Source of the DNA: an uncultured Bacteroidales bacterium
GTDB taxonomy: Bacteria; Bacteroidota; Bacteroidia; Bacteroidales; CAZJKL01
NCBI GenBank assembly: GCA_964546655.1
Contig: CAZJKL010000001.1
Location: forward strand, 69,751 to 133,750
Length of the DNA stretch: 64,000 bases
Direction of reading: 5' to 3'
In this document: piece after piece, positions 1,810 to 25,795 of the stretch
Layout: each line of letters begins with the position of its first letter
Numbering within the stretch: position 1 is the stretch's first letter
Position numbers and translations under genes: made by a program
The notes under the pieces: generated by a model
Told to the model about the DNA's origin: nothing
The model's database searches: none
What the model saw: the letters and a program-made list of their open reading frames with translations, nothing else

Positions 1810-1814
1810 TAAAA

Positions 1815-3497: not shown

Positions 3498-3997
3498 TAA
3501 TTATGCGTGTATTTTTAGTCTTTGTTTTTGTATTAATTACAAATTTAATATTTTGTCAAAAAAAGTCAGATACTATATATATAATTATAAAAGATGCTGT
3601 TTTTAATGATAGTGTATTTTACTACAATGATGGGTTAAATAATTTATATAAAAAAATAAATAACAAATTTTACATAAATAGTAAAAAGAAATGTAACAAA
3701 AAAGCAAGATCAATTATAGGATGGCACTCTGAAGATAAATATAAAGTATTTGTTTTTAAAAATAAAAAAGGGAAAAGAATAGAGGAAGGATATTGGAGTT
3801 ATGAGGTGTGGAGAAATGGATATTATATTTTTTATCATAAAAATGGGGTCAAAAAATCAGAAGGAGTATTTTATATTAATGAAAAGATTGGGAAATGGTA
3901 CTATTATGATGAAAAAGGAGTATTGATTAAGACAGAAAACTTCCAAGATATTTATAATATATTAGAAAAATATAATCGTTACCCAAAAATAGAATAA
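3494..3997 (+). CDS. MORN-repeat, YwqK-family immunity/antitoxin-like protein with signal or lipoprotein leader
   Basis: Hydrophobic leader ending LIFCQ. Repeated G-x-W/Y motifs (EEGYWSYEVWRNGYYIFYHKNGVKKSEGVFYINEKIGKWYYYDEKG) are typical of MORN/YwqK repeats. Confidence 0.7.
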   Translation: MIIMRVFLVFVFVLITNLIFCQKKSDTIYIIIKDAVFNDSVFYYNDGLNNLYKKINNKFYINSKKKCNKKARSIIGWHSEDKYKVFVFKNKKGKRIEEGYWSYEVWRNGYYIFYHKNGVKKSEGVFYINEKIGKWYYYDEKGVLIKTENFQDIYNILEKYNRYPKIE

Positions 3998-4042
3998 ATT
4001 TAGTATTCATTCTTGGGCGATTCCAGAGATAGTCTGTAACCA

Positions 4043-4213
4043 CATGGGGCACAACTTTAAGTCGTACCCCATGTAAAAAGAGTAATTACTCACATATTTA
4101 ATTATTTTTTTGGGGTGTTCGTGAATCTTCGGTTTACTCACTTACCAAATTATTTTTATTGGGTTTCGTGAATGCCTTCGGCATTTCGTAATTCGTAATT
4201 TGTAATTCGTAAT
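4043..4213. repeat. Composite intergenic repeat element: conserved-loop hairpin, two ttcgtgaat stem-loop units, (TCGTAAT)4
   Basis: catgggg-17nt-ccccatg at 4043-4073. aatgcc-ttc-ggcatt stem-loop at ~4170-4184. Heptads at 4186-4213 (tcgtaat, tcgtaat, ttgtaat, tcgtaat). Paralogous to 11986-12183 and partly to 1745-1809. An inverted copy of the hairpin lies at 163-193. Confidence 0.85.
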
Positions 4214-4277
4214 TATTTTATGGCTTTGCGTGAAAATTTAAAAAAATCCCAATTAGTAGAAATTCGAATAAAATTAT

Positions 4278-4285
4278 TATATTTG
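4278..4285 (+). promoter_or_regulatory. Candidate -7 box (TATATTTG) for rpn-like gene
   Basis: TAnnTTTG match 18 nt upstream of the ATG at 4304. Confidence 0.45.
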
Positions 4286-4303
4286 CATAAATTTCAAAAG
4301 ATT

Positions 4304-5188
4304 ATGACCACAACTCTAAAAGACAAATATATAAACCCTTTTACCGATTTTGGGTTCAAGCGTATATTTGGAGAAGAACCTAATAAGGATATATTAATAG
4401 ACTTTTTAAATACCTTGTTTTCTGGCGAATTAATAATTAAGGAGTTATCATTAAAACCACCATATAAAACATCAAAAACAAAAGAAGAACGAAAAGTTGT
4501 ATTTGACTTATACTGCAAAACCTCAACTGACGAACGAATTATTATTGAAATGCAAAAAGCAAAACAAAAATATTTTAAAGATCGCAGTGTGTTTTACAGT
4601 ACTTTCCCCATACAAGAACAAGCACAAACAGGAGAATGGGATTTTCAACTCAATGCAGTTTATACAATAGGTATTCTCGATTTTGTTTTTGACGACCAAG
4701 ATAAAGACAGACAATTAGTTAGTGAGGTAAAATTAATAGAAACCAAAACATCAAAAGTTTTTTTCGATAAACTTACGTTTTTATACTTGCAAATGCCCAA
4801 CTTTAATAAGCAAGAGCATGAACTAGAAAATAGATTTGACCAATGGCTATACATACTAAAAAACTTACCTAAGTTTGAAAAATATCCAAATATAATTAAC
4901 GATAAGATATTTAAAAAACTATTTAAAATAAGCGAGATAGCAAATTTTAACAAAGAAGAGATAATGGCCTATGAAGAAAGTCTTAAAACATTCAGAGACC
5001 TTAAAAATTCATTAGACACAGCACGCGAAGAAGGAAGAGAAGAAGGAAGAGAAGAAGGCGAACAAATAGGAATTACAAAAATTATAATAAACGGACACAA
5101 AGAGGGCTTTTCAATAGAGATGTTGAAAAAAATAACAGGATATACCGAAAAAGAGATTAAAGAAATAATTAAAAACAACAAACTTTAA
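4304..5188 (+). CDS. Rpn-family recombination-promoting nuclease / PD-(D/E)XK putative transposase
   Basis: KYINPFTDFGFKRIFGEE...DILIDFLN...VFDLYC...IIEMQKAKQKYFKDRSVFY is the recalled Rpn/YhgA-like signature. Start moved to the ATG at 4304, downstream of the -7 box. 12-nt tandem repeat encoding EEGREEGREEGE near the C-terminus. Confidence 0.85.
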   Translation: MTTTLKDKYINPFTDFGFKRIFGEEPNKDILIDFLNTLFSGELIIKELSLKPPYKTSKTKEERKVVFDLYCKTSTDERIIIEMQKAKQKYFKDRSVFYSTFPIQEQAQTGEWDFQLNAVYTIGILDFVFDDQDKDRQLVSEVKLIETKTSKVFFDKLTFLYLQMPNFNKQEHELENRFDQWLYILKNLPKFEKYPNIINDKIFKKLFKISEIANFNKEEIMAYEESLKTFRDLKNSLDTAREEGREEGREEGEQIGITKIIINGHKEGFSIEMLKKITGYTEKEIKEIIKNNKL

Positions 5189-5203
5189 TAACCAGTTTGC
5201 GTC

Positions 5204-6547
5204 ATGAGTTATGTTGGGTTTAATACAATATCAACCTATAAGCAACAATCATCAAGCGAAGGCGGTAAATTTATTTTAGAATCGCAAGAATTGTACGGAA
5301 GTGAGCGTTTGGGCGAGAACAAAGAAACAAGACTTTTGGCAACAGTAAAATTTACATTTAATGGTTATTTAAATAATAAGTTTAAAAATATAATATACCG
5401 AACACCAATAGTTAATACACTAAATGACAGCACCTACAAAAGTTTTGGTTACACAAATTATGAGTTAACAAATCACTTAGGCAATGTTATGGCAACAGTT
5501 AGTGATAAAATTACACCAAACCAAGTTGATGTTGTAAACAATAATATTATTAACTTTAGTGCTATGGTAACAAGTGCTAATACATATTACCCATACGGTA
5601 TGCTAAAACCAAACACTAGTAGCTTAAGCGGTTATAGGTTTGGTTACCAAGGGCAAGAAAAAGATAGCGAAATAAAAGGCGAAGGCAACTCTTATAATTT
5701 TAGTTTTAGAATTTATGATAGTAGAATAGCTAAATTTTTAAGTCCTGACCCTTTAAGATTTAGATTCCCATTTTATTCTCCTTATCATTTCTCCTCAAAC
5801 TCGCCTATTGCTGCGGTTGATTTAGAAGGATTACAGCCGTGGGTTAGAAGTTACAATGTAGATATAGATAATAAAAGTTATGTTGTGAAAATAAATCCTT
5901 TACGACCACAGAGATTTAAGATAAGGTATCATAATACGAATTTTTTACAAAAAAGTGCTGCCAAATATGCTTTTAAAGGGAAAAGAAAATTTTTTGAAGA
6001 CGGTAGGAGATATAGTCCTTTTTTTCGACAAATAGGTGGTAAACCTTCTTCTATGAATTTGTTTTACCCAAATAATAGTCAGAAATTTAATGCTAATGAA
6101 TATGATGATGATGGTAAAATAACAAGGCATGGTAGTGAAGATTATAATGATTTAGCAGTTAATTCTTTAATTGATGGAAAAACTCCCAAAGAATTTGTTG
6201 ATGCTTTGTTAGAACAAAATCCCAATGTAATATTAAATATAATTCCTAATCATGCTGCTTCTCAACATAATATGCGAAATGGCGATACTACTAGATATGT
6301 TGGTAGTCCAAATGAAGCATCAGATAAATTTACTGATGATAGAGGAATTAATACTAAAATACTTTTGGGTAATTATAAAAACATTAATGTTATTCCAAGA
6401 TACAATATTTCTCCTATAGAAAAGTATACTTTTCATCATTCTATTTTAATTCCACCATATAAGCACGATGGAATGGGTATAATCCTTTATTTTGAAATAA
6501 AGAATACACCACCGGTAAGTCGAGTATATTGCCCTACATATATGTAA
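5204..6547 (+). CDS. Orphan RHS C-terminal cassette: last YD-like repeats + RHS repeat-associated core + unrecognised ~237-aa C-terminal (toxin) domain
   Basis: LYGSERLGENKETR handle (aa 30-43). YELTNHLGNVMATVSD. Core YYPYGM...YRFGYQGQEKDSE...YNFSFRIYDSRIAKFLSPDPL...SPYHFSSNSPIAAVDLEGL ends at aa 210 (nt 5833). The remainder (5834-6544) matches no family I recognise. No RHS shell lies upstream: the rpn gene ends 16 nt before the ATG. Confidence 0.85.
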   Translation: MSYVGFNTISTYKQQSSSEGGKFILESQELYGSERLGENKETRLLATVKFTFNGYLNNKFKNIIYRTPIVNTLNDSTYKSFGYTNYELTNHLGNVMATVSDKITPNQVDVVNNNIINFSAMVTSANTYYPYGMLKPNTSSLSGYRFGYQGQEKDSEIKGEGNSYNFSFRIYDSRIAKFLSPDPLRFRFPFYSPYHFSSNSPIAAVDLEGLQPWVRSYNVDIDNKSYVVKINPLRPQRFKIRYHNTNFLQKSAAKYAFKGKRKFFEDGRRYSPFFRQIGGKPSSMNLFYPNNSQKFNANEYDDDGKITRHGSEDYNDLAVNSLIDGKTPKEFVDALLEQNPNVILNIIPNHAASQHNMRNGDTTRYVGSPNEASDKFTDDRGINTKILLGNYKNINVIPRYNISPIEKYTFHHSILIPPYKHDGMGIILYFEIKNTPPVSRVYCPTYM

Positions 6548-11692: not shown

Positions 11693-12022
11693 ATGGTTAG
11701 TGAAAAAATAATTAAAAGACTTTTAGTTCTAGTAAAATCAACTTTCGTGATCGCAAGTTGGTTGATGTATTATTTATATAAAAGTGAAAGAATTGAATAT
11801 TCAATAAATGTATTATGGAGAAATATAAATGAATATTCTTTATATGTTTTTGTGCTTTTGATAATGGTGGAATTTTTTTTAAAGGATAAAAAACAAATTT
11901 TCCTCTCTTTTATTTGTATATTAACAGCTTTTGTTTTAAGTCAAAACATCACTGCCGAAGGAACAAAAATAGATAGTTGGATAGACACAACTTTAAGTCG
12001 TACCCCATGTAAAAAAGAGTAA
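11693..12022 (+). CDS. Small predicted membrane protein (about three hydrophobic segments); possible orphan immunity gene
   Basis: Hydrophobic stretches LLVLVKSTFVIASWLMYYLY, YSLYVFVLLIMVEFFL and IFLSFICILTAFVL. The ATG overlaps a handle-like remnant (acagtgaagatgtaaattatgg). The 3' end runs into the repeat element, so the C-terminus may be repeat-derived. Confidence 0.4.
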   Translation: MVSEKIIKRLLVLVKSTFVIASWLMYYLYKSERIEYSINVLWRNINEYSLYVFVLLIMVEFFLKDKKQIFLSFICILTAFVLSQNITAEGTKIDSWIDTTLSRTPCKKE

Positions 12023-12183
12023 TTACTCACATATTTAATTGTTTTTTTGGGGTGTTCTTGAATGCCAAAGGCATTTCGTAATTTTCACTTATATCTCGTA
12101 ATTCATAATTTGTAATTCGTAATTATTATTGGTTTTCGTGAATACCTTCGGCATTTCGTAATTCGTAATTTGTAATTCGTAAT
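11986..12183. repeat. Composite intergenic repeat element (copy with two stem-loop + heptamer units)
   Basis: cacaactttaagtcgtaccccatg (left hairpin arm missing). aatgcc-aaa-ggcatt and aatacc-ttc-ggcatt stem-loops. Heptads at 12096-12123 and 12156-12183. Confidence 0.85.
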
Positions 12184-12413
12184 TATTAATTACTTTCTAT
12201 TATGATTCAATTAACAACCTGATAAACTGGTATTAACCCTTAATAATTAAGTATTTCACATTGCGTATTAAAAAATAATTTATAAAAAGTTCAAATAAAA
12301 TAAGGTTGAAAAAATAAAAATAAAGAAGAAAAAAGTATGAAGGTTAAAATTAATTTTATAAATTTAAATGTTTAAATTATAATTTAGAAATTTAATAATT
12401 GGAGAATAAAAAT

Positions 12414-14501
12414 ATGAACAAAAAAGCATCACTAAAGGTTACTTCACCTAAAAGTTTATACTATCATATTGATGAAGTTAGCAATGAAAAAAGAAGATTT
12501 GAAAATGTATTTCAATCTGTATCGAGAATGATTCTTGGTAATCCCGACAACATAGAAAAAGTTAATATTAACGGAAAAAATACTTATGATTTTAAAGTAT
12601 TTCGTCAGGGGAAAAAGCACATTGTTGGTATGCATGAAGAAATAAACAGTTTTGTTTCGTTTGTTAAAGATGCTGCTGAAGGTGGCTCTTCTGCCGAAAT
12701 GGCTTTCGTTTTAATTGGCGAACCAGGAAACGGTAAAACTTATTTAGTTGACTACTTAACAAAAATATACCGAAATTTTATTTCTCTTCCAGAAAATCGT
12801 CGTTACACTTTTAGATATAAAAACCTAGAAAGATTAGGCGGATACGGTAAAATTAATTATATCGAATCACAAACATTCGAAGACCCTATGGTTTTAGCTA
12901 TGAACTTGTCTGAAACTAAAGCCGAAAATATTAAATTTTTATCTAATCAAGGGTTAAGCGACAAAAAGATTGAACAACTTTATAATAATTATCGTCCACT
13001 TGGAGCATGTTCGTATTATGTTTTAGAACAAATTAAAGAATACTGCAATGGCGATATTGATAAATTAATTAATGAATTTATCGAAATAGTTCCTGTTCCA
13101 ATCAGCGAATCAAGAGGAACTGTTACAGGTAAATATGCAGCTAAAGATAAAATTACATCATCGGCTGTAGATTTATTAGGAGAAGAATCTATTACAAGAT
13201 TATTACATATAACAAATACCGATAACCCTTACCGTTTCGATTTAAGAAGAGGTGCTTTAGCAAGAGTTGCTGGTGGTGGTATTCACTTTGCAGATGAAAT
13301 TTTTAAAAATAAAAAAGACCTTGTTCAAGTATATCTTGGAGTAATTCAAAACAGAACTATTGAAATAGAAGGTTTTAAATGGCCTCTTGATACTTTAATT
13401 ATTGCAACTAGTAATAACTCAGAATTTGCTCGTTTCCTTGAAGAAAAAGAACAAGCACCTATTGTTGACAGATGCAGAATTACTTATATGTCGCACAATA
13501 CAAACTTTAAACTTCAACAACAATTAACCGAATATTCAATTGGTGGTGATGGTATTAAAACTACTTTCTTAAACGAAAAACTACACATTGATCCAAACTT
13601 AAATTATGCTATTTCGGTTGCTATAATATTATCTAGAATGCCAAAATCAGATAAATTATCACCAATCGAAATGATGAAATTAGCTGCAGGTGAAGTAGCC
13701 GGAGAAAAAAGTATTAAAACTTTAGGCGAAGTTATAAGCGAACTTAATAGCGACCCAGATGTTACTAAACGCTTTGGTCAAAAAGGTTTAGGACACAGAA
13801 ACCTTGGTCGTGCTATTCAGGTTTTATTAGAACAATCTGAAACACAAGAAGGAAAATGTATGTATGCTGGAGATATTTTTAAATCTCTTGAAAGAGTAAT
13901 TCTTGATTATGTTAATGATGCTAATGATAGAGCTAAATACCTTAATGATTTAAAAATTGCTAAAGGATTACATAGAAAAAATGTTATGACAACTATTTTT
14001 AATGCATATATGGATGAACCTAATGCTGTTGAAAAAGATGTTATGAACTATGTAAATATGATTATTGGTATTGATGCTAAAAATCTTGGTGCCGATAAAA
14101 TTTGGACATATCGCGATCCTCAAACAAATAAACTTGTTCCTTTAAAAATAGATGAGTCTTTTATTAATAGTGTTGAAGATCGAATTGGTCTAAAAACTCA
14201 AGAACAAAAACAAAGCTATAGAACAACTATCTCTAAAATATATGGTCAAAAAATGATTAAAGACCCTAATTATAATTTTATGGATAATAATGATTTAGTT
14301 AAAGCTGTTACTGATGTTCGATTAAAATCTGATATAGCTGGAGCAGGTAGCTTGGTTGGTGCATTATCTAATAGAACTAATGAAGAAAACCAAGTATTAT
14401 ACAATAGAATGATTGATACAATGATAAAAAAGTTGGGCTATTGTAGAACTTGTGCCGAAAAAACAATCGAATATTTCTGTACTCAAGATGATGTGAATTA
14501 A
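12414..14501 (+). CDS. prkA: PrkA/YeaG-family AAA+ protein (putative Ser protein kinase)
   Basis: Walker A GEPGNGKT (12717-12740). Overall layout resembles E. coli YeaG / B. subtilis PrkA. ATG at 12414 preferred over the TTG at 12399. Confidence 0.85.
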   Translation: MNKKASLKVTSPKSLYYHIDEVSNEKRRFENVFQSVSRMILGNPDNIEKVNINGKNTYDFKVFRQGKKHIVGMHEEINSFVSFVKDAAEGGSSAEMAFVLIGEPGNGKTYLVDYLTKIYRNFISLPENRRYTFRYKNLERLGGYGKINYIESQTFEDPMVLAMNLSETKAENIKFLSNQGLSDKKIEQLYNNYRPLGACSYYVLEQIKEYCNGDIDKLINEFIEIVPVPISESRGTVTGKYAAKDKITSSAVDLLGEESITRLLHITNTDNPYRFDLRRGALARVAGGGIHFADEIFKNKKDLVQVYLGVIQNRTIEIEGFKWPLDTLIIATSNNSEFARFLEEKEQAPIVDRCRITYMSHNTNFKLQQQLTEYSIGGDGIKTTFLNEKLHIDPNLNYAISVAIILSRMPKSDKLSPIEMMKLAAGEVAGEKSIKTLGEVISELNSDPDVTKRFGQKGLGHRNLGRAIQVLLEQSETQEGKCMYAGDIFKSLERVILDYVNDANDRAKYLNDLKIAKGLHRKNVMTTIFNAYMDEPNAVEKDVMNYVNMIIGIDAKNLGADKIWTYRDPQTNKLVPLKIDESFINSVEDRIGLKTQEQKQSYRTTISKIYGQKMIKDPNYNFMDNNDLVKAVTDVRLKSDIAGAGSLVGALSNRTNEENQVLYNRMIDTMIKKLGYCRTCAEKTIEYFCTQDDVN

Positions 14502-14512
14502 AAAATTAACAC

Positions 14513-15886
14513 ATGACTAAAAAATATAATAAATTATTGCAATTTGTTAAAAAAAACAACATTGATGTTGATAGCAATGAAGCCGTAAAACGAGAGTTGG
14601 AAATAATAAAAAATAGCAATAATCCTGATATTAAATTTAATAGTTCTTATTTGGGTTTGTATGATTTAAGCGATTTTGAAGTTATTCAAAAAATGAATTT
14701 AACTCCAATTAATCCATTAATTTCATTAAAAACTTTAGATGAGCTATTAGATCAAGATAAACAAAGAGTTAATGATGGTTTTCCAAGACGAATTCGTCTT
14801 GGAAAACTTGTTAAACCTTTGCAGGGAAATAAATCAAAAGTTGTTATAGTACCAACTACTACCGAACCTAAATTTTATCACGATAATTCGATAACCGAAG
14901 ATGATGAAGATAGCACTGGTGGCTCGGGAGAAGGTGAAGAAGGCGAAGTTATTGGCGAACAACAAGCTCAACCGCAACAAGGCGAGGGCGAAGGTCAAGG
15001 TGCCGGTGAAGGCAATTCTGCTGGTCACGATATTAGTCAGGAAGCATTCGATTTAGGTAAAATTATAACCGAAAAATTCCAATTACCTAATCTTAAAGAT
15101 AAAGGTTCTAAAAAATCTTTTTCTAAATATATCTACGACTTAACCGATAGAAATAGAGGCTTTGGTCAATTGTTAGATAAAAAAGCAACTTTAAAAAAAG
15201 TTATAGAAACTAATATCCTTTTAGATAATATCAAAGGAGGCGAATACTTTAATCCCGAAAATCTTATTCTAAATCCTAAAGATCAAATTTTTAGAATATT
15301 ATCGCAAGAAAAAGATTTCGAAACTCAAGCAGTTGTTTTCTTTGTTCGTGATTATTCTGGCTCAATGCAAGGCGAACCTACCGAAGCAATAACAACACAA
15401 CATTTGCTTATTTATAGTTGGCTAATGTTTCAATATCAAAATAATGTTGTTACAAAATTTATTGTTCACGATACCGACGCTAAAGAAGTTGAAGATTTTT
15501 ACACCTATTATCGTTCACAAGTTGCCGGAGGAACAAAAGTTGCCCCTGCTTTTAAACTTGTAAATAAAATTATTGACGAAAATCAATATCAAAAAGATTA
15601 TAATATCTATATATTTTATGGTACCGATGGTGATGATTGGGATAATGACGGTAAAGAACTCTTAGAAAACATTGATATTCTATTAAATAAAGTAAATAGA
15701 ATAGGTATTACTGTTGCTAAAAACGGTTGGTCAAGTAATGAAGCAAAAACAACAGTAGAAAAAAACATCGAAAAATCAGGATATTTACAAAGTAAATCAG
15801 ATTTAATTAAAATGGATACATTTAAATCTAAAGGTGTTTCTGAAGATAGAATTATTGAAGGTATTAAAAAAATTGTAGGCGAATAA
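14513..15886 (+). CDS. yeaH: YeaH/YhbH (DUF444) family protein with vWA-like MIDAS motif
   Basis: Acidic Gly/Glu-rich linker (GGSGEGEEGE...GEGEGQGAGEG). DYSGSM (DxSxS) at 15350-15367. Canonical position after prkA. Confidence 0.85.
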   Translation: MTKKYNKLLQFVKKNNIDVDSNEAVKRELEIIKNSNNPDIKFNSSYLGLYDLSDFEVIQKMNLTPINPLISLKTLDELLDQDKQRVNDGFPRRIRLGKLVKPLQGNKSKVVIVPTTTEPKFYHDNSITEDDEDSTGGSGEGEEGEVIGEQQAQPQQGEGEGQGAGEGNSAGHDISQEAFDLGKIITEKFQLPNLKDKGSKKSFSKYIYDLTDRNRGFGQLLDKKATLKKVIETNILLDNIKGGEYFNPENLILNPKDQIFRILSQEKDFETQAVVFFVRDYSGSMQGEPTEAITTQHLLIYSWLMFQYQNNVVTKFIVHDTDAKEVEDFYTYYRSQVAGGTKVAPAFKLVNKIIDENQYQKDYNIYIFYGTDGDDWDNDGKELLENIDILLNKVNRIGITVAKNGWSSNEAKTTVEKNIEKSGYLQSKSDLIKMDTFKSKGVSEDRIIEGIKKIVGE

Positions 15887-17490
15887 TGGAAATAATAAAT
15901 CAACATACTAAAAAAATAATGGAAGAATGTAAGCTTCGTGCAAAAGATGCCGGACTTAAATTCGATAGTGAAACATTAGAGTATATAGTTACTAATAAAG
16001 ATATGCTCGACCTTTCACCTAAAGTTATGATTCCTACCTTATATGACTATTGGGTTAATGATGTTGAAGTTTTAAAGGGTCAAGGTAAATACAAACTATA
16101 TCCATCAAATCCTTATGAAACAGTTATAAATTCACGCCCAGCTATTTCATTTTATAATGACAATAATCCCGATTGGATGAATATTATGATTTTTTATCAT
16201 GTTATTGGGCATATTGACTTCTTTCAAAACAATAAATTATTTGAACATACTTGGAATGATGATTTTGTTGGACAAGCTTTAGCTGATAAAAGATTAATAG
16301 CAAATTTGCGATTAACTTATGGCAGATGGGTTGATTATATTATAGAATTTAGCAGAAGCATTGATAACCTTGTTGGATATTTTCCTCATTTAGCTAAATT
16401 GCAATATAAAGGAGAGATGAATCCGCCGTCTAAAGTTGATTTTTATTTTGATAAATTTTTGCAAAAAGAAATTTCGGTTTCTTATATCGAATATTTTAAA
16501 GAAGTTGACAGATATAATAATGAAATAACCAATAGTCCAGAAAACGGCGAAAATATATTTTTCTCTAATATAAGAGCTAAATACCCAGAATTTAATTCAT
16601 TATATGAAACATTTTTAAATGAAGATGATGACGATTCTATTGATTTACTCGAATTTATAAATAGAAATTCACCTCTTTTAAACAAGCGAGATAATCAATG
16701 GATGAAGTCGGTTTTAAGTATTATTCGTAATACTTCGATGTATTTTCAACCTCAAATAAGAACTAAAATTGCAAATGAAGGTTGGGCTAGTTATTGGCAC
16801 GACAATTTATTTAGAAAAGACCCACGAATAAAAGGACACGAATCTGGTTATGCAAAATTAAATGCTGGTGTTACTTCAATAAGTAGAGTTGGTTTAAATC
16901 CTTATGCTATTGGTTTAAGATTGTTTGAATATGTAGAAGACCAAGCTAATAAAGGTAAATTATCGAGAGAATTTCAACTATTAAATGATGTTCAACAGCG
17001 TGAAGACTATAATAAAAATTGTAATACAGGGAAAGATTTAATTTTTAAAATCCGTGAAAACTTCTCTGATTTTATGTTTGTAAACACATTTGTTTCGCAA
17101 GATTTTGTTGATTATTATAATTTATTTGTTGTAGGTCAAAGATATAATCAACAAAGGCAAACTATTGAATATTACATAAAAAGCCGAAAAGCTCAAGATT
17201 ATAAAAATATGTTAATAGATTCGCTTTATCATCCACCTCTTATCTCGGTTAATAAAGAAAAAACTAATGAAGATAATTTATATCTAGAACATAAATTTGA
17301 ACATAAACAATTGGTTAAAGATTTTATTCCAGATACTTTATTGGGTATAGAATTTTTATGGGGAGGTCAGGTTCAAATAGAAACTACTGAAATAACTGTA
17401 AACAAACAAAGTAAAAACGAAAATCCTTTTGAATACAAAAAAGTGTTATATACAATAAAGGATAAAAAAGTAACAAAGCAAAATCTATAA
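15886..17490 (+). CDS. spoVR: SpoVR/YcgB family protein
   Basis: Conserved SpoVR-like blocks (YHVIGHIDFF, ANEGWASYWH). 1-nt overlap with the yeaH stop. Confidence 0.85.
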   Translation: MEIINQHTKKIMEECKLRAKDAGLKFDSETLEYIVTNKDMLDLSPKVMIPTLYDYWVNDVEVLKGQGKYKLYPSNPYETVINSRPAISFYNDNNPDWMNIMIFYHVIGHIDFFQNNKLFEHTWNDDFVGQALADKRLIANLRLTYGRWVDYIIEFSRSIDNLVGYFPHLAKLQYKGEMNPPSKVDFYFDKFLQKEISVSYIEYFKEVDRYNNEITNSPENGENIFFSNIRAKYPEFNSLYETFLNEDDDDSIDLLEFINRNSPLLNKRDNQWMKSVLSIIRNTSMYFQPQIRTKIANEGWASYWHDNLFRKDPRIKGHESGYAKLNAGVTSISRVGLNPYAIGLRLFEYVEDQANKGKLSREFQLLNDVQQREDYNKNCNTGKDLIFKIRENFSDFMFVNTFVSQDFVDYYNLFVVGQRYNQQRQTIEYYIKSRKAQDYKNMLIDSLYHPPLISVNKEKTNEDNLYLEHKFEHKQLVKDFIPDTLLGIEFLWGGQVQIETTEITVNKQSKNENPFEYKKVLYTIKDKKVTKQNL

Positions 17491-17496
17491 TTATAT

Positions 17497-19740
17497 ATGG
17501 CTAAAATTAAAAAAAACGAGAATTATAGTGAGTTAGAAGAAAAAGCTAAAAAGCTAGAAGGATTACTAAATTTAACTAGCAATATAATTGAAAATGAACG
17601 AAGAAAACCAATAACTTTTAATGATTTTCTTTTTAATACTTCTAATTCTCCAGACAAAACCTTAAGAAACATATTTCAGCTATTTAATGATATGATGAGT
17701 TTTTATGTAGGTGATGGAGTTGATGAATATTCTTCTGATAAATTTACTATAGGATTTAAAAACTATAATTTTGATAAATTATTTATAGAAAATAGCGAAA
17801 ATCCATTTTTTGCAGATAGATTATTTGCTAATAGACTTATGAATTTAACCGAAACTATTAGCTTAGGTGTTCAAACCAATAGATTTTATCTTTTCGAAGG
17901 ACCTCCTGGTAGCGGTAAAAGTACATTTTTAAATAACTTCTTAAAAAAATTAGAGGATTATACTAAAACCAAAGAAGGCACACTTTATACAACTTTGTGG
18001 AGAATAGATAAAAATAAAATAAATGATAAAGATTTAAAAATAGCAAATTCATTAAAAGATAATAAAAACGATTTTCTAGAAATTAGTTGTCCTAGTAATG
18101 ACCACCCTATTTTACAAATACCAAAATATTATAGACGCCAGTTTTTAGAAACTTTAATTTCAGACGAAGCTCTAAAAAAAGAAATATTTGAATCAAAAAA
18201 ATATGAATGGATTTTTAAAGATGATCCTTGTAGTATTTGTAGCTCAATTTTTAATTCATTAATTGATAAGGTTGATCAACCTCTTGAAGTTTTTGATATG
18301 ATTTATGCTAAAGCTCTCGATTTTAGTCGTCAGTTTGGACGAGGAATAAGTGTTTATAACCCTGGAGATATTATTTATAAAAATCCAATTGAAAATAACG
18401 AATTACAAAATAAAATATCGTCACTTTTTAATACCGATGAAATAAAATATGTTTATTCGCCTTTGTCTAGTACAAACAACGGTGTTTATTCATTAATGGA
18501 TATTAAAGAATATAATATCGACCGATTATTATCATTACATGGTATCATTAGTGATGGAGTTCACAAGGTAAAACATTTAGAAGAACATATTAGAACAATG
18601 TTTATCGGAGTTATTAACCCAGAAGATAAACGACATTATGAAAATATTAAATCGTTTCAAGATAGAATTACAACGATAAATGTGCCTTATATTCTTGATT
18701 ACAATACCGAAGTTAATATTTATAAAAATAAATTTGGCGAAAATATCGAAGCTTTGTTTTTACCAAGAGTATTGAAAAATTTTGCTAAAATAATTATTTC
18801 AACAAGGTTAGAAAGAAACTCACCTGCTATTCGTAAATGGATAAATCCTGACAATTATAGTAAACATATTGATAAAAATATGCTTTTATTAAAAATGGAT
18901 ATTTATACCGGAAAAATTCCAACTTGGATAAAAGAAAATGATTTAGATACATTTACTCCTGAAATTAGACGAAATGTTATTGGTGAAGCTGAAAAAGAAG
19001 GTGTAGCTGGTTTCTCTGGACGACAATCTTTAGTGATTTTCAATAACTTAATTAAAAAACATTCTTGTAAAAAGAAACTTATAACAATGGAAAACATTAA
19101 AAGTTTCTTTATCGAATATGATAATTTAGAGGCTAATGTTCCTGAAGGATTTATTGATTCATTAAACCAATTATATGAATTTAATATTTTAGAAGAAGTA
19201 AAAGAATCAATCTATTATTACAATAAAAATCAAATAGCTAAAGATATTCAAAACTATATCGAAAGTGTTAATTATGAAATAGGCGAACAATTTGTTTCTA
19301 AATACACAAATGATAATATCGAAGTAACCGAAGATTTTTATAAAAATTTCGAGTTTATTGTTTTAGGTTCAACGGTAAGTAATAATGAACGAAGACAATT
19401 TAGAAATAATGTTTTAAATGAATATATTAAAAAAACTTTGTCTCAAGAAATTAATGTAGAAAGATTAAAAATTACTGAAACAGAATTGTTTAATGCTTTA
19501 ATGGATAGATATATCCGTAACTTAAAAGATAATGCTTTAGCTCCTTATAGTAATAATGATAATTTCAGAAGGGCAATATTAGATTATAACAACAATGAGT
19601 TTAAAAACTATGATAACAAAATTAAAAAGAGCATAGAATTCCTTGTAAATAATATGATAAACAAATTTAATTATACAAAAGAAGGAGCTTTGCAAACAAT
19701 AATTTATGTAATTGATAAAAAATTAGATAGTCAATTTTAA
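17497..19740 (+). CDS. Second, divergent PrkA-like P-loop protein
   Basis: Walker A GPPGSGKST (17899-17925), preceded by a PrkA-like N-terminal region (FADRLFANRLMNL...FYLFEGPPGSGKS). Same operon, 6-nt gap after spoVR. Confidence 0.7.
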   Translation: MAKIKKNENYSELEEKAKKLEGLLNLTSNIIENERRKPITFNDFLFNTSNSPDKTLRNIFQLFNDMMSFYVGDGVDEYSSDKFTIGFKNYNFDKLFIENSENPFFADRLFANRLMNLTETISLGVQTNRFYLFEGPPGSGKSTFLNNFLKKLEDYTKTKEGTLYTTLWRIDKNKINDKDLKIANSLKDNKNDFLEISCPSNDHPILQIPKYYRRQFLETLISDEALKKEIFESKKYEWIFKDDPCSICSSIFNSLIDKVDQPLEVFDMIYAKALDFSRQFGRGISVYNPGDIIYKNPIENNELQNKISSLFNTDEIKYVYSPLSSTNNGVYSLMDIKEYNIDRLLSLHGIISDGVHKVKHLEEHIRTMFIGVINPEDKRHYENIKSFQDRITTINVPYILDYNTEVNIYKNKFGENIEALFLPRVLKNFAKIIISTRLERNSPAIRKWINPDNYSKHIDKNMLLLKMDIYTGKIPTWIKENDLDTFTPEIRRNVIGEAEKEGVAGFSGRQSLVIFNNLIKKHSCKKKLITMENIKSFFIEYDNLEANVPEGFIDSLNQLYEFNILEEVKESIYYYNKNQIAKDIQNYIESVNYEIGEQFVSKYTNDNIEVTEDFYKNFEFIVLGSTVSNNERRQFRNNVLNEYIKKTLSQEINVERLKITETELFNALMDRYIRNLKDNALAPYSNNDNFRRAILDYNNNEFKNYDNKIKKSIEFLVNNMINKFNYTKEGALQTIIYVIDKKLDSQF

Positions 19741-20366: not shown

Positions 20367-20374
20367 TATTTTTG
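20367..20374 (+). promoter_or_regulatory. Candidate -7 box (TATTTTTG) just upstream of the immA-like ATG (near-leaderless)
   Basis: TAnnTTTG ends 6 nt before the ATG at 20381. Confidence 0.35.
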
Positions 20375-20380
20375 CAATAT

Positions 20381-21559
20381 ATGGCAGAGAAAGCATACAT
20401 AACGGCAAAAGTTTTTAAATGGGCAAGAGAATCAGCTAAAATGACTGAAGAAATTGCTGCATCTAAAGTTGCTGTTTCTATTGATAAGTTTAAGGATTGG
20501 GAAACAGGAGAAGATTATCCGACTATTCGACAGGCACAGACATTAGCGAAAGCGTATAGAAGACCATTTGCATTATTTTTTCTGCCTGATGTACCAAAAG
20601 ATTTTCAACCTCTTCAAGATTTCAGGAAAATAGGCTCAAAAGAATTAAGTACATCTTCAATTTTTATAATTCGAGAAATACAACAAAAACAAGCTTGGAT
20701 TAGCGAAGTAAACGAAGATAATAATGAAAATATAGTTCCATTTATTGGCAAATTCACTATTAAAGATAATCCAGTACTTGTTGCTAAGGATATTCTCGCT
20801 ACGTTAAATATCAACCCATTAAATTATAAATCTAATAATCCAATCATTGAATGGATTGATAAAGCTGAATCTAATGGGATTTTTATTTCAAGGACTAGTT
20901 TTATCCATTCAAGGCTAAAGTTAGACTCAAATGAAATTCAAGGTTTTGCAATTGCAGACGACTTTGCTCCTTTCGTATTTATTAATTCTGACGATTGGAA
21001 TGCTCCTCAATTATTTACTTTAGTTCACGAACTTTCTCACCTTTGGATTGCCGAGACGGGGATATCAAATGACGTAGAGCCATCAATAAAAAAAGCTGGT
21101 GATTATAATCCAATTGAATTATTCTGCAATGAAGTTGCTGCAAACGCACTAATGCCTATGGAATTTATTGATAGTCTTGATAGTAAGGCTTTTAATAATG
21201 CTAAAGAAGTTTTTGAAAATGCTAAAATAATTGGGGTTAGCTCTTTTGCATTATTGGTTAGAGCATTAAACCTTAACATTATTTCATTAAGTGCATATAA
21301 ACAATTGAAGCATATAGCCGACATTGAATATAACGAATTCTTAAAAAGAGAAGAAGCAAAAAAAATAAAGCAGAAAGAGAAAGAAAAACGAGGCGGGCCA
21401 AATTATTTTTTACTGCAACTAAACAGAAATAGTAGATTATTTACACAAACTGTATTAGATGCTTTTCGTGGTGGGGTAATTGAACCATCTATGGCAAGTA
21501 ACTTATTAAATGTTCAGGTAAATAAGTTTCCCAAACTTGAAGCACAAATATACAGATGA
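20381..21559 (+). CDS. XRE-type HTH fused to ImmA/IrrE (DUF955) zinc metallopeptidase
   Basis: N-terminal HTH-like segment (TIRQAQTLAKAYRRPFALFF). HEXXH = HELSH at 21026-21040. ATG at 20381 preferred over the TTG at 20372. Confidence 0.8.
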   Translation: MAEKAYITAKVFKWARESAKMTEEIAASKVAVSIDKFKDWETGEDYPTIRQAQTLAKAYRRPFALFFLPDVPKDFQPLQDFRKIGSKELSTSSIFIIREIQQKQAWISEVNEDNNENIVPFIGKFTIKDNPVLVAKDILATLNINPLNYKSNNPIIEWIDKAESNGIFISRTSFIHSRLKLDSNEIQGFAIADDFAPFVFINSDDWNAPQLFTLVHELSHLWIAETGISNDVEPSIKKAGDYNPIELFCNEVAANALMPMEFIDSLDSKAFNNAKEVFENAKIIGVSSFALLVRALNLNIISLSAYKQLKHIADIEYNEFLKREEAKKIKQKEKEKRGGPNYFLLQLNRNSRLFTQTVLDAFRGGVIEPSMASNLLNVQVNKFPKLEAQIYR

Positions 21560-22062
21560 GTATGATTAATAAAAAATTCTGCTTAGATGCTAATGTGCTT
21601 ATTCAAGCATGGCAAAAATACTACTCTCCAAAAATATGTCCAAGCTATTGGGATATGCTTAATGAATTAGGTGCTAATAATGTCATTTTCATGCCAGTGA
21701 TGGTCTATGATGAAATTGTTCGAACGGATGATGATTTATCAAAATGGTTGAAGTCAAGTAAAATTCCTATTAGAAAAATTGACGAGCAAGTAACAAAATG
21801 CTTAAAAGACATTTATTCTGCTGACCCTAACCACAAATATTTAGTTGATAATACAAAGGCAAGATCTTTGGCAGACCCATGGGTGATTGCACATGCATTA
21901 AGAGAGAACGCAACAGTCGTAACAAAAGAAGAAAAAGTAACAGCCATAAATACTACAAAAATAAAAATTCCTAATGTGTGTGAAAAGATGAATGTATCAT
22001 GGATTAATGATTTTCAATTGATTATTGAGTTAGGGATTATATTTAAGTGTGAAATGGAATAA
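21556..22062 (+). CDS. DUF4411 (PIN-like) protein, partner of the ImmA gene
   Basis: FCLDANVLIQAW...YY...DPWVIAHA...VVTKE pattern recalled for DUF4411. 4-nt overlap with the immA-like gene. Confidence 0.75.
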   Translation: MSMINKKFCLDANVLIQAWQKYYSPKICPSYWDMLNELGANNVIFMPVMVYDEIVRTDDDLSKWLKSSKIPIRKIDEQVTKCLKDIYSADPNHKYLVDNTKARSLADPWVIAHALRENATVVTKEEKVTAINTTKIKIPNVCEKMNVSWINDFQLIIELGIIFKCEME

Positions 22063-22275
22063 TAACAAAGCACGAACCGCAAACAATGCATATAAGCAAT
22101 GGCAGGGTTTGTGAGTGGTTGAAAGTTTTGTAACTTGCATTAAAAGTAACTCTGCTCGACAGAGAAGTTCTCCGAAGTCCGCCAAAGCTCATATGCTTTC
22201 CGTTAGCTATACCATTTAGAGAACCAACCTCATTTTGTTTATGCGTCGGTAACATACTGTGAATTGCAAACAAAT
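22063..22275. other. Relatively G+C-rich non-coding block of unknown nature
   Basis: Visibly higher G+C than its surroundings. The only ORF is an implausible 76-aa minus-strand one. Short hairpins ctctg-ctcga-cagag (22150-22164) and aaagc-tcatat-gcttt (22184-22199). Confidence 0.4.
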
Positions 22276-22341
22276 TATTCTTTTCTTGTTAACATCAATT
22301 ATTTTTTCTAATTTTGAAACTGATTTATTTCAAATAATTTA

Positions 22342-23346
22342 ATGTTTTTATCAATGAATTTACCAATTTATTTTTCGGCGATATATAATAAATATTTGGA
22401 AATAAAGGTTCAGAAAAAATTCAACAAAAGTTTCCTTATTCCTTATCTAAACGAACTAGAAGTAAAGTATAACGGTAATTTTGATCCTGTGCAGGTTCAA
22501 AAAATACTAAATTATTATGGATTATTTATTACTTCTTTTCTTTGCAGCAGCTATAAACAATTGTATGGTAAAAAATTAACCTCAGAAGAAAGAAAAAGAG
22601 CAACATTGTTTGGAATTTTAACTCCGGTAGTAGATGATATGTTTGATGTTGAAAAATCTGATATAGAAAGTATAAAAGCTATTGCTTTAAATCCCGAAAA
22701 TAGTTCACCTGAATCATTTTCTTCAAAAGTGTCTAGAGAAATACATGTTTTTGAAAAGCAAAATGTGCGTTATAAAAAAGAATACCTTGAAGCTTGCGAA
22801 AATTTACTGGAAATACAAATAGAAACTATAAAACAAACTAATCCCGAAATTTCACCAGAAGAAATTGAGCGAATTACTTATACCAAAGGTGCATGGTCGG
22901 TAATTATTTATCATCAAGTGCTTGATGATATTGCCGATAAACAAATGAAAGAAGTTTTATTTTTAATTGGCAGTTTATTTCAGCTTGGAAATGATACTTT
23001 TGATTGTTATAAAGATGTGAAAGATAATATTTATACTCCAGTCACAACCTGTGTTGATTTCGTCGCTTTTAAAAAGAAATTTCTCAACATATTACAGGAA
23101 ATGAATGTTAAAATAATGGATTTGCCATATAATAAAAAAAATAAAAAAGAATTTTGTATTGTTATAAATGCAATTAATGCAAGAAGTTTGGTGGCAATAG
23201 ATATGTTTATCAGGTTACAGAAAAAAATAGGCACAAAAATTAATTGGCATAATTTGGATAGAAAATCTATGATTTGTGATATGGGAAAACCTATTAATAT
23301 TATAAGGTGGGTTTATTATATTTTTCGTTTGCCGCTTTTGAAATAA
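22342..23346 (+). CDS. Uncharacterised helical protein with Asp-rich motifs (isoprenoid-synthase-like?)
   Basis: DDMFD (aa 98-102, nt 22633-22647), DDIAD (aa 195-199), NDTFDCYKD (aa 217-225, nt 22990-23016). No long hydrophobic TM segments. Confidence 0.7.
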   Translation: MFLSMNLPIYFSAIYNKYLEIKVQKKFNKSFLIPYLNELEVKYNGNFDPVQVQKILNYYGLFITSFLCSSYKQLYGKKLTSEERKRATLFGILTPVVDDMFDVEKSDIESIKAIALNPENSSPESFSSKVSREIHVFEKQNVRYKKEYLEACENLLEIQIETIKQTNPEISPEEIERITYTKGAWSVIIYHQVLDDIADKQMKEVLFLIGSLFQLGNDTFDCYKDVKDNIYTPVTTCVDFVAFKKKFLNILQEMNVKIMDLPYNKKNKKEFCIVINAINARSLVAIDMFIRLQKKIGTKINWHNLDRKSMICDMGKPINIIRWVYYIFRLPLLK

Positions 23347-23386
23347 ATATTAACCCAACGATAAAATATTTATAGTTATACTTCGG

Positions 23387-24637
23387 ATGAAAAAGTATAA
23401 TTTTGTTTCTGTATTATTTGAGTTATTTTTTATGAAATATATAATTTTAAAATTTATAAAATACTTTAGAGCCTTTTGGGTGTTTGGTGTTTGTTTTTCA
23501 TTTGTTTTTTTTCTAACAAATAATACTATTACAGCACAAACTCCTGATACAATTTTAATCAATCAACTTATAAAAGAAATAGCAAAAGAACAGGTAAAAA
23601 CTAAAACAGAATTATTTGAGGGAATGTTTCCTTCTTTTCGTGAATGCAGCGGAATACCACATAATTACCAACCCGATAATACAGTTTTTTTTACTGCTAT
23701 TTCAATTTTTACATTACAAAATCTTCTGCCTTATCTGAAAAATGAAAATAAAATTATTGCCGAAAATGTGATTGAAAACGGTATTAAAAGCTTTATTTAT
23801 TATAAAAATAAAAAAGGGCCTTTTTATGGTTTTTGGCCTACCGATAGTATTATTATGCCGCATACATATTATTTAAAATATCTTAAATGTATTTTCGGAC
23901 AAGGTGACGATGCTGATGACGCAGTGATGATTTTGATGGCTTCTAAAAGTAATGATAGTATTTGTAGCGTTTTAAAAAAACGTTTGATTGAAGTAAGTAA
24001 TTTGAACAGTAAAAGAATTTTTTCTACGTTCAAAAGATATAAAAACATACAAGCTTATAGCACTTATTTGGGATATAAAATGCCTGTGGATTTTGATCTT
24101 GGAGTTCAATGCAATATTCTTTATTTTATGTTCGACAGAAAATTACCTTTGGTTAAGCAGGATAGTGCTACAATTAAATTACTTCAACAAATTATTGCAA
24201 ATAGGGATTACATGAAACACCCTATTTATTTATCGCCATATTATGTAACATCGCCCATTCTTTTATATCATATTTCGAGGTTGATTGGGAAATTTAAAAT
24301 TAATGAATTAGAACCATATAGGCAACAATTGATTGATGATATAAGAAAATTATATAATAGTGGGAATACAATGGATAATATTATTCTAAATACATCTTTA
24401 ATTAGGTTAAAAGCAAAACCGTTTAGTTCAGAAATTAACTCATTAAGCGAATTTAAAAAAAGTGACCAAAATAAATTTATTTTTTTTCAGGCAAGAGCTG
24501 CATTTTGGTACCCAACACCTTTGAAACAAATTTTTCTTCATTTCAGATATATCAACTATTATTTTTATTGCCCTACTTATAACAAATTATTATGGTTGGA
24601 ATATCTTGTTGAAAAAAATAGCATCAGTTGGTGGTAA
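23387..24637 (+). CDS. Uncharacterised protein with N-terminal signal/anchor and a DxDD-like motif
   Basis: Hydrophobic leader ...FFLTNNTITAQ. GQGDDADDAVMILMA (aa 171-185, DDADD at nt 23906-23920). 41-nt gap after the previous gene. An alternative start is at 23432. Confidence 0.7.
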   Translation: MKKYNFVSVLFELFFMKYIILKFIKYFRAFWVFGVCFSFVFFLTNNTITAQTPDTILINQLIKEIAKEQVKTKTELFEGMFPSFRECSGIPHNYQPDNTVFFTAISIFTLQNLLPYLKNENKIIAENVIENGIKSFIYYKNKKGPFYGFWPTDSIIMPHTYYLKYLKCIFGQGDDADDAVMILMASKSNDSICSVLKKRLIEVSNLNSKRIFSTFKRYKNIQAYSTYLGYKMPVDFDLGVQCNILYFMFDRKLPLVKQDSATIKLLQQIIANRDYMKHPIYLSPYYVTSPILLYHISRLIGKFKINELEPYRQQLIDDIRKLYNSGNTMDNIILNTSLIRLKAKPFSSEINSLSEFKKSDQNKFIFFQARAAFWYPTPLKQIFLHFRYINYYFYCPTYNKLLWLEYLVEKNSISWW

Positions 24638-24766: not shown

Positions 24767-25795
24767 ATGGAAAACTTTGATGAATATTTAAGACAAGGCG
24801 AACCAAACAAAACTGAGAAAGCAAAAGTTTGGAAAACGGCTATCGGCTTGCAACAAGTTGACGGCTTAAAACCATCTGAATATCTCATTGATACTGCTAA
24901 ACAAAACATTGAAGGAGACATAACCATTGACGAAGTAAAAAAACGCATTGACAGTTATTATCAGCAATACCCAACCAAAACAAACGAAGACCGCACTGAA
25001 GAAGCCGACAAGGTTTCGGTAAGAATTGCTGAAATGTTGAGTGAGCAAACCTTTACGTTTTCACCCGCAGAATACTTATCAATTCATCGAAGATTGTTTT
25101 CAGGTATTTACAAATTTGCAGGAAAAATTCGTGATTACAATATCACCAAAAAAGAATGGGTTTTGAATGGCGAAACCGTTCTTTATGCAAGTGCAGACAG
25201 TTTGAAAGAAACTTTGGAATATGATTTTGAACAAGAAAGAAAATTTAGTTACAAAGGATTAAGCGAACAGGAAATAATAGAACACTTAACACGCTTTATT
25301 TCTTACCTGTGGCAAATCCACATTTTTGGCGAAGGCAACACACGAACAACAGCAATTTTCTTAATAAAATATTTGCGAAAATTAGGGTTCAAAAACGTAA
25401 ACAACGATTTGTTTGCAGATAACTCTTGGTATTTCCGAAATGCACTTTTAAGAGCCAACTACGAAGACTTATCAAGAGGAATTTACAGAACAGAAAAATA
25501 TTTGATTCGCTTTCTTTCAAACTTATTACTCAAAGAAAATTATTCGCTAAAAAATCGTGAAATGTATATTTTAGCAGAAAATGCAGATGACACTGTAAAG
25601 CTACAAATTGAAACTGTAAATGATACTGTATTTTCATTGATTAAGCAAGATAACAAAATAAAGGCGAACGAAATTAGTGAACGATTGAGATTGAGTTTAA
25701 GTACTGTGAGACGAAAAATCAAAGAACTCAAAAACAACAGTAAAATAGAACGTATTGGTAGTGATAAAACAGGATATTGGAAAATAAAGGTATAA
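24767..25795 (+). CDS. fic: Fic/DOC family protein with C-terminal winged-helix domain
   Basis: Fic motif HIFGEGNTRTT. C-terminal ISERLRLSLSTVRRKIKELK...GYWKI is HTH-like. N-terminal helix contains NIEG. Confidence 0.85.
   Translation: MENFDEYLRQGEPNKTEKAKVWKTAIGLQQVDGLKPSEYLIDTAKQNIEGDITIDEVKKRIDSYYQQYPTKTNEDRTEEADKVSVRIAEMLSEQTFTFSPAEYLSIHRRLFSGIYKFAGKIRDYNITKKEWVLNGETVLYASADSLKETLEYDFEQERKFSYKGLSEQEIIEHLTRFISYLWQIHIFGEGNTRTTAIFLIKYLRKLGFKNVNNDLFADNSWYFRNALLRANYEDLSRGIYRTEKYLIRFLSNLLLKENYSLKNREMYILAENADDTVKLQIETVNDTVFSLIKQDNKIKANEISERLRLSLSTVRRKIKELKNNSKIERIGSDKTGYWKIKV

Follow-up and report, generated by a model that had tools for sequence, protein, structure and literature searches.

A conserved gene pair of Bacteroidota with a class I-type isoprenoid-synthase fold and an apparently exported class II terpene cyclase β domain

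The subject of this analysis is a pair of adjacent genes in a 64,000-nucleotide (nt) stretch of DNA from an uncultured Bacteroidales bacterium (contig CAZJKL010000001.1, positions 69,751 to 133,750), referred to here, at its full length, as the window. Gene 1 (22342-23346, forward strand, 334 residues) encodes a protein whose predicted structure is an isoprenoid-synthase α-fold of class I type. Gene 2 (23387-24637, same strand, 416 residues), which begins after a spacer of 40 nt, encodes a protein that both fold and family profile match to the β domain of class II terpene cyclases. The two open reading frames (ORFs) had been picked out, at these same positions, in an earlier sequence-only reading, which proposed from their Asp-rich motifs a pairing of class I and class II terpenoid chemistry. 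At the level of fold, catalytic residues and genomic co-occurrence that proposal has held, and we think it likely that the two proteins work together on a terpenoid. The likely order of the pathway changes, because the cyclase appears to be exported and to lack the arginines with which the related drimenol synthase AsDMS binds diphosphate: the class I-type step would come first, and to this fuller model, export included, we give a probability of roughly 0.55.

That gene 2 is a stand-alone class II cyclase β domain is very probable. Its AlphaFold2 (AF2) model, with a predicted local distance difference test (pLDDT) score of 82, consists of an N-terminal helix followed by an α/α-barrel, the fold that had been expected for it. 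The ten best Foldseek matches are all AsDMS (E-values 2e-8 to 8e-7; query TM-score, TMq, 0.51-0.55), and they are followed by small cyclases resembling squalene-hopene cyclase, SsDMS, ent-CPS and MstE (TMq 0.49); the barrels of glycosidases and of the complement TED match at ~1e-3 or weaker. Sequence comparison leads to the same enzymes. A profile of 73 broad family members (24-55% identity), searched against PDB sequences, finds AsDMS (E 6.6e-7) and AstC from a fungus (E 4e-4), with no other sequence-level matches, and the profile of the close family finds nothing relevant there. Neither Pfam nor NCBIfam gives a match for gene 2, and the Pfam copy used gives none for 26 close and the 73 broader family members; distant relatives have precomputed matches, faint or weak, to PF28380 (AstC-like_C). 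Pfam finds no HAD domain in gene 2, where only the signal peptide precedes the barrel, and the 150 family representatives listed are all shorter than 485 residues. QW motifs are absent, which does not count against a cyclase of a single β domain, since such repeats are typical of βγ triterpene cyclases. In an exhaustive profile search the wider family comprises 447 clusters at 50% identity (226 at E<=1e-30), most members of which have DxD[DT] at the same position.

Gene 2 carries GDDADDAVMILMA, which includes the aspartates of the DxDD motif D175-A-D177-D178 (23909-23920). The sequence-only reading had likened this motif to the proton donor of class II cyclases, and had warned of chance matches. 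For gene 2 the warning was apt, in that a DxDD arises in 2.3% of shuffles of its sequence; since the motif is not improbable by chance alone, its weight rests on conservation. All three aspartates are invariant in 26 homologues, and in the broad alignment, where the consensus is LPDDxDDT, the conservation of D175 and D177 is 90% or higher. The same alignment keeps N243, Y286, Y294, H295 and R298, with Y286 invariant in all 73 members, and aromatic residues make up 28% of the invariant positions of gene 2 against a background of 16%. Residue for residue, D175-x-D177 aligns with D321-L-D323-T-T of AsDMS, and Y285-Y286 (24239-24244) with AsDMS Y426-Y427, Y286 corresponding to Y417 in the numbering of structure 9mhs and to Y427 in full-length numbering. 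The AsDMS residue D323, which is D333 when the full-length protein is numbered, has been proven to be the general acid (PMC12232559, PMC12365925); Y427 hydrogen-bonds to it, with Y427F abolishing activity, and Y426 binds phosphate (PMC12365925). By this alignment D177 is the predicted general acid of gene 2 and Y285-Y286 supply its predicted partner.

For gene 1, as for gene 2, the model bears out the expectation, here of a terpenoid-synthase α-fold. It is all-helical, with a pLDDT of 93.9 and a predicted TM-score (pTM) of 0.90, and the 50 matches to the PDB listed by Foldseek are without exception isoprenoid-synthase folds, 44 of them the α-fold and 6 the UbiA-type membrane fold; we regard the predicted fold as settled. 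Among these listed matches the lowest E-values are to CrtM (2.4e-3; TMq 0.43-0.48), and the TM-scores are higher for the class I diterpene synthases, with TMq up to 0.59 (structure 7e4n): Sat1646/7e4o (TMq 0.58-0.59, target TM-score, TMt, 0.65-0.67) and BjKS (root-mean-square deviation 4.8; 4xlx). The class IB β-prene synthase structures 5yo8 and 6loo match at TMq 0.53-0.54, and sesquiterpene cyclases and prenyl diphosphate synthases are also listed. Sequence windows show no transmembrane-like or signal-type hydrophobic segment. We are fairly confident that gene 1 is a diphosphate-utilising enzyme of this fold; it may act as an ionising synthase, by head-to-head condensation or by prenyl transfer. 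The start of gene 1 is more likely M5 (nt 22354); the 330-residue gene calls of NCBI and Logan and the homologues agree on it.

The motifs that a metal-dependent enzyme of this kind would use stand where they had been reported. The first, DDMFD (residues 98-102; 22633-22647), is a predicted Mg2+/diphosphate site at the C-terminal end of predicted helix 81-102. The second, NDTFDCYKD (residues 217-225; 22990-23016), lies at the end of helix 200-220/222-227, with N217, D221 and D225 at positions i, i+4 and i+8; in this NDxFDxYKD pattern, 119 residues after the first motif, Asp replaces the Ser/Thr and the Glu of the NSE triad. Of the window ORFs that reach 150 residues, 41 in number, gene 1 alone has a DDxxD with an NSE-like motif 100-160 residues further on. 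Shuffling gene 1 with its composition preserved yields this combination at 5e-5, which makes a chance match unlikely.

Conservation narrows this set. In 29 homologues (59-66% identical) D98, D99, D102, N217, D218, F220, D221, K224, D225 and D228 are invariant. In 25 deep relatives (24-65% identity), where the second motif persists, the invariant residues are D98, D102, N217, D218, D221, K224 and D225, but not D99, together with Y59, E83, Q165, I178, K182, G183, G210, Q214 and D313; R307 is at least 90% conserved. One deep clade has FDYFVDE in place of GDDLFD. From these deep invariants and this clade, the core metal-binding set of the family appears to reduce to DxxxD plus NDxxDxxKD. Two suggestions of the sequence-only reading fall away at this point. 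The further Asp-rich motif DDIAD, present at residues 195-199, is not conserved among the 29 homologues and is probably irrelevant. Kinship with YtpB through a DxxDxxxD motif is unsupported at the sequence level: the motif is not conserved in the family, acidic residues flanking D98/D102 vary in the deep members, and neither gene 1 profile matches 5yo8 or 6loo at E<=10. Other families fare no better. The terpene synthase models PF03936 and PF19086 match none of the 29 close members and one of the 25 deep members (PF03936, E 5e-3), PF00494 (squalene/phytoene synthase) gives no match at E<=1 in the 54, and in the copy of NCBIfam used no model reaches its cut-off for gene 1. The family comprises ~475 clusters at 90% identity.

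The two genes are linked well beyond this genome. Of the species-representative genomes scanned, 96 carry gene 1, and the named carriers, which include Parafilimonas, Ilyomonas, Ferruginibacter, Segetibacter, Limnovirga and Ginsengibacter, are all Chitinophagaceae, Chitinophagales or 'Bacteroidetes' metagenome-assembled genomes. Gene 2 lies directly downstream of gene 1 in 75 of 84 loci, mostly from Chitinophagaceae reference genomes; the other nine comprise three at a contig edge and six with unrelated downstream genes. Gene 2 is the sole conserved neighbour of gene 1, found in 71 of 80 loci where the next most frequent gene reaches 16; the flanks of the pair vary among genomes, and elsewhere the pair sits among housekeeping genes. 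In a metagenome set of 80 loci, every gene 1 relative below 1e-110 on a contig of sufficient length has gene 2 within ~160 nt. A divergent clade, in which gene 1 is 25% and gene 2 32% identical, keeps the pair in convergent orientation. The association persists across about 100 genomes and metagenome contigs even at 25% identity and with orientation changed. Unrelated folds, or two genes that do not occur together elsewhere, were what the sequence-only reading had thought would speak against it; what we find are the expected folds and a recurrent pair. In the three loci of the divergent clade (L090 8001-10182, L093 3552-5812, L174 6001-8270) the genes abut or overlap by a few nt, tail to tail, and the first motif of gene 1 is FD(Y/N)F(V/F)DE, not DDxxD.

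Each family also occurs by itself. For another 36 relatives of gene 1, which are more divergent, neither a gene 2 within 5 kb nor any conserved neighbour was found. The gene 1 family thus extends beyond the pair, and these lone relatives presumably make an end product on their own. They carry DDFFD and NDIFDVYKD, stand among housekeeping genes, and include loci L094, L097, L099, L103, L105, L111, L112, L115, L124, L136, L139-L144, L151, L155, L157, L159, L163, L164, L167, L170 and L172. Conversely, gene 2 relatives that lack a signal peptide, of Cytophagales type (Dyadobacter, Emticicia and related metagenome contigs; five loci from three distinct genomic places), occur without gene 1 in their vicinity. 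The Emticicia-type loci have a Zn-dependent ADH_N_2/ADH_zinc_N oxidoreductase 3-40 nt upstream of the signal-less gene 2 homologue (L089 6996-9146, L091 6962-9101, L092 322-2461), a different conserved pairing of the cyclase family that is likewise uncharacterised, and in Dyadobacter sp. Leaf189 (L087 8001-10164) a FAD_binding_6/NAD_binding_1/Fer2 reductase follows the cyclase homologue after 2 nt. No genes for geranylgeranyl diphosphate (GGPP) synthase or P450 lie near the pair, and polyprenyl and phytoene synthases were looked for in the fetched loci and not found.

The feature that most affects the proposed pathway is the N-terminus of gene 2, a predicted Sec signal peptide (residues 1-50; 23387-23536). 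Transmembrane-like windows occur in gene 2 only at residues 6-44, the basic residues K2, K3, K17, K22, K25 and R28 stand ahead of the hydrophobic core, and from this core and the TAQ site we predict cleavage after A50 (T-A50/Q51). Substrates of signal peptidase I in Bacteroidota typically have glutamine at +1. Among 100 close homologues, 86-88 have the hydrophobic core with a Lys/Arg-containing n-region, and in 66-72 a small-x-small motif followed by Q or H ends the N-terminal region. Where the sequence-only reading had allowed a signal or an anchor, the signal peptide is favoured and a permanent anchor is probably not present.

The second such feature is the site that would hold a diphosphate. 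In AsDMS the diphosphate of farnesyl diphosphate (FPP) is held by R378, R380, R425 and R513 with Y373 and Y426, and R378A loses 96% of activity (PMC12365925). Three of these four arginines can be mapped onto gene 2, R513 being outside the aligned region, and all three are replaced, R378, R380 and R425 by M232, D235 and P284, which are themselves invariant in the close family.

Because gene 2 seems to be exported, because this diphosphate site is missing and because the chemistry of gene 1 is of class I type, we propose that gene 1 acts first. It would be cytoplasmic and, with Mg2+ coordinated by D98/D102 and N217/D221/D225, would bind a prenyl diphosphate, stripping off the diphosphate by ionisation and elimination in the manner of class I or IB enzymes, or by head-to-head condensation. 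As its substrate, the heptaprenyl diphosphate of the menaquinone-7 pathway is an attractive candidate. The product would be a diphosphate-free, membrane-soluble isoprenoid, which the exported gene 2 protein would meet at the periplasmic side of the envelope. There D177, helped by D175 and Y286, would protonate a terminal C=C of the lipid and the chain would fold into rings, a cyclisation that would suit the periplasm since no cofactor is needed.

Several observations weigh against this model. Six genomes hold gene 1 without an adjacent gene 2, and one signal-bearing Chitinophaga homologue of gene 2 has no gene 1 within 6 kb, so that the coupling of the two is not obligatory. The export of gene 2 is predicted from sequence features only, and literature searches found no precedent for an exported terpene cyclase. 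Although AsDMS R378, R380 and R425 are replaced, R513 is unmapped, and the conserved family residues R85 and R298 might bind an anionic head group. The Foldseek E-values of gene 1 are modest (~2e-3), and by sequence it is tied to a known family only through a local match to polyprenyl synthases that stays below threshold, taken up below. The lone Chitinophaga sp. homologue (L173 6001-7152) adjoins a GH18 chitinase-like gene and a Fic-like fragment.

The remaining points against it are those that favour a serious, if unlikely, rival, in which the order is that of labdane biosynthesis: gene 2 would cyclise FPP or GGPP to a drimenyl- or copalyl-type diphosphate, gene 1 would then ionise it, and the hydrophobic N-terminus would be a tether on the cytoplasmic face. 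AsDMS, AstC and the AsDMS-like β-domain enzyme of Sorangium all act on FPP, and the nearest neighbours of gene 1 by TM-score, Sat1646, 7e4o and BjKS, are class I enzymes whose substrate, copalyl diphosphate, comes from a preceding class II cyclase. The AsDMS tyrosines Y373 and Y426, essential for phosphate recognition, have aromatic counterparts in Y227 and Y285, the position of Y227 being W in most family members. Against this, the succession of n-region, h-region and small-x-small-Q is that of a cleaved Sec signal peptide and not of a tether, and the positive charge at the extreme N-terminus would put the domain outside. The three arginine positions hold invariant M, D and P, and the gene 2 subfamily that is signal-less, and presumably cytoplasmic, is the very one with no gene 1 nearby. 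On these grounds we prefer the model in which gene 1 acts first.

A further alternative, which we consider improbable, concerns gene 1 itself, which could be a highly divergent chain-elongating trans-prenyl diphosphate synthase that supplies the substrate of the cyclase. The one Pfam match of gene 1 is to polyprenyl_synt (PF00348), below threshold (E 0.0016; 18.1 bits against a cut-off of 27; residues 140-227). It recurs in 23 of the 29 close and 9 of the 25 deep members, with best E-values of 3e-4 and 6e-5, and because of this recurrence it is probably a real, if remote, signal. At its centre stands GSLFQLGNDxFD, similar to GxxFQxxDDxxD, the second motif in FPP synthases (FPPS), and gene 1 aligns locally to the KT and FQxxDDxxD regions of Staphylococcus aureus FPPS and Escherichia coli IspA. 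Moreover, FPPS genes cluster with those of drimenol synthases (DMS) in marine Flavobacteriaceae (bioRxiv 10.1101/2025.09.20.677545). We nevertheless do not assign gene 1 to the polyprenyl synthase family. Against PDB sequences the close-family profile of gene 1 gives nothing relevant and the deep profile only insignificant local FPPS matches, and hhalign against IspA gives a probability of 1%, local only. In place of FQxxDDxxD the second motif is (F/Y)QLxNDxFD, with Asn for the first Asp in every member, the state seen in the NSE motif of terpene synthases. The close family has no RRG after the first motif, and the L090 clade has DxxxDE instead of DDxxD. Nor would a supply of prenyl diphosphate suit a cyclase that lacks the AsDMS diphosphate arginines and is seemingly exported.

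A non-terpenoid reading, with gene 2 as a periplasmic six-hairpin glycosidase-like or carbohydrate-binding protein and gene 1 as an unrelated helical metal binder, could point to a signal peptide typical of Bacteroidota glycan-processing proteins, to weak Foldseek matches of gene 2 to GH88, GH76 and GH8 barrels and to two gene 2 homologues that UniRef names DUF3131 and DUF2264, but it is very improbable, since those glycosidase matches are some five orders of magnitude weaker than those to AsDMS, among PDB sequences the family profile finds terpene cyclases only, with the catalytic DxD and Tyr in register, no Pfam glycosidase, DUF3131 or DUF2264 is found at E<=1 in the 26 and 73 members, gene 1 independently has an isoprenoid-synthase fold, and no SusC/SusD or glycan-utilisation genes are conserved near the pair.

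The setting of the pair in the window is less constant than the pair itself. On the 5' side lie a PrkA/DUF444/SpoVR operon (~12000-19740), a second PrkA-like AAA protein (747 residues) directly upstream of the region, a small Lys-rich ORF, and an ImmA/IrrE-type helix-turn-helix (HTH) metallopeptidase gene that overlaps a DUF4411 PIN-like gene by 4 nt (20372-22062); on the 3' side is a Fic-HTH gene (24767-25795). PrkA/DUF444/SpoVR, seen in L085 at 1-6354, is the conserved stress-kinase module. The ImmA/DUF4411 and Fic genes match defence-type models: the ImmA/IrrE metallopeptidase matches RmrA and CapP of PADLOC, and the Fic-HTH protein the candidate defence model PDC-S72 (E 5e-143). These genes, akin to defence and toxin-antitoxin systems, bracket the pair in this genome only. 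The sequence-only reading had placed the pair in an accessory island, a view that these flanking matches support and that the composition of the pair and its housekeeping flanks elsewhere do not. A defence role for the pair was considered and rejected, PADLOC having matched the neighbours and neither gene 1 nor gene 2. Recent horizontal transfer of the pair likewise has no compositional support, because its GC content (27%) equals that of the window.

Between the DUF4411 gene and gene 1, a spacer of 280 nt contains a unique segment (22060-22300) with 37% GC, compared with 27-31% in its surroundings. Nothing in Rfam and no tRNA matches this segment, neither the rest of the window nor the fetched loci have a second copy of it, and it may be a gene remnant or an RNA. 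Around the pair no structured RNA or tRNA was found. A scan for promoters and terminators, not designed for the promoters of Bacteroidota, gave counts at chance level and no terminator between the two genes. The window matches a JGI metagenome contig (3300020048, 103 kb) and an NCBI contig of 149.7 kb. Its GC content compares with 33-45% in all 80 Chitinophagaceae loci with the pair (L005-L084), and the best homologues of its pair are only 66-68% identical; the host belongs to an unusually AT-rich lineage that is absent from the matches among species-representative genomes.

Our literature searches found no description of the gene 1 family, the gene 2 family, their pairing or an exported class II cyclase. 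The logic of class I plus class II enzymes is already known, as is the monodomain cyclase; what is new are the two families, their pairing and the apparent export. Both families are unannotated, in that neither reaches the cut-off of the Pfam and NCBIfam models in the copies used. The characterised class II cyclases of a single β domain are few (MstE, AsDMS/AstC and one enzyme from Sorangium), and the gene 2 family enlarges this pool. Such cyclases are central to arguments on the origin of terpene cyclase domains (PMC12414744), and if gene 2 is what it appears to be, its 447-cluster family of stand-alone β domains offers a large natural sample for the question of a 'monodomain root'.

An exported cyclase acting on a diphosphate-free lipid made by the product of the neighbouring gene would, if confirmed, represent a new compartment logic for terpenoid biosynthesis, and would point to cyclic isoprenoid lipids in a common family of soil and freshwater bacteria. 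More tentatively, and with less confidence than in the model itself, we suggest that Chitinophagaceae and some other Bacteroidota may make unseen polycyclic isoprenoid lipids of the envelope, through a new class I-type family and the first exported class II cyclase. Such lipids would take the place of hopanoids or sterols, with a biosynthetic route that has no relation to squalene-hopene cyclase, and could be a source of cyclic terpane biomarkers that has gone unrecognised. Cultured carriers of the pair include Parafilimonas terrae DSM 28286, Ilyomonas limi, Limnovirga soli, Segetibacter aerophilus and Panacibacter species.

How does the pair compare with characterised systems? The closest for gene 2 are AsDMS of Aquimarina spongiae and AstC, which share with it a single α/α-barrel β domain with DxD(D/T) and a catalytic Tyr, and the stand-alone sesquiterpene synthase of Sorangium cellulosum, which is AsDMS-like and in which the β domain alone is active, on FPP. 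The differences are nevertheless considerable. Identity to AsDMS is only ~15%, below detection for the close-family profile. AsDMS has an N-terminal HAD phosphatase domain, whereas gene 2 has none and has a signal peptide instead; the lineage of AsDMS and AstC has DxDTT or DxDVT where gene 2 has DxDD; and the diphosphate arginines are replaced as described. The partner of gene 2 is a class I-like protein, in contrast to the FPPS, AraC or ABM partners of the AsDMS lineage. MstE, the merosterolic acid synthase of Scytonema, shows that a stand-alone class II cyclase of a β domain only (~350 residues) can act on a substrate with a non-diphosphate head group, using a DxD motif and a prenylated dihydroxybenzoate (PMC12324236). 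It matches gene 2 in fold, but not at the level of sequence, and no aromatic prenyltransferase gene is conserved near the pair.

For the pair as a whole, the bacterial labdane systems (BjCPS/BjKS; Sat1646 and Stt4548) offer the same arrangement of separate class II and class I genes side by side. Their class II enzymes, however, are βγ didomains that bind GGPP through Mg2+ and act first, whereas gene 2 is a β monodomain, apparently exported and without the diphosphate site. The succession of a dehydrosqualene or squalene synthase (CrtM, SQS_PSY family) and squalene-hopene cyclase places the class I-fold enzyme first. CrtM gives the lowest Foldseek E-value for gene 1, but its TM-scores are below those of the class I diterpene synthases. 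The deeply invariant set D98/D102 and N217/D221/D225 of gene 1, with a spacing of ~119 residues, may resemble D48/D52 and N168/D172/D176 of CrtM.

The closest parallel in logic is provided by the sesquarterpenes of Bacillus, in which the class IB enzyme YtpB/BalTS removes the diphosphate of a long prenyl chain that menaquinone biosynthesis provides, and the class II cyclase SqhC then acts on the resulting hydrocarbon. YtpB/BalTS matches gene 1 in fold, but without sequence similarity, and SqhC is a βγ didomain enzyme of the cytoplasm and membrane, whereas gene 2 is an apparently exported β monodomain. The YtpB-type and SqhC genes of Bacillus are not known to be adjacent. The order of their two steps, first the class I-type enzyme and then the class II cyclase, is nonetheless the order that we propose for gene 1 and gene 2.

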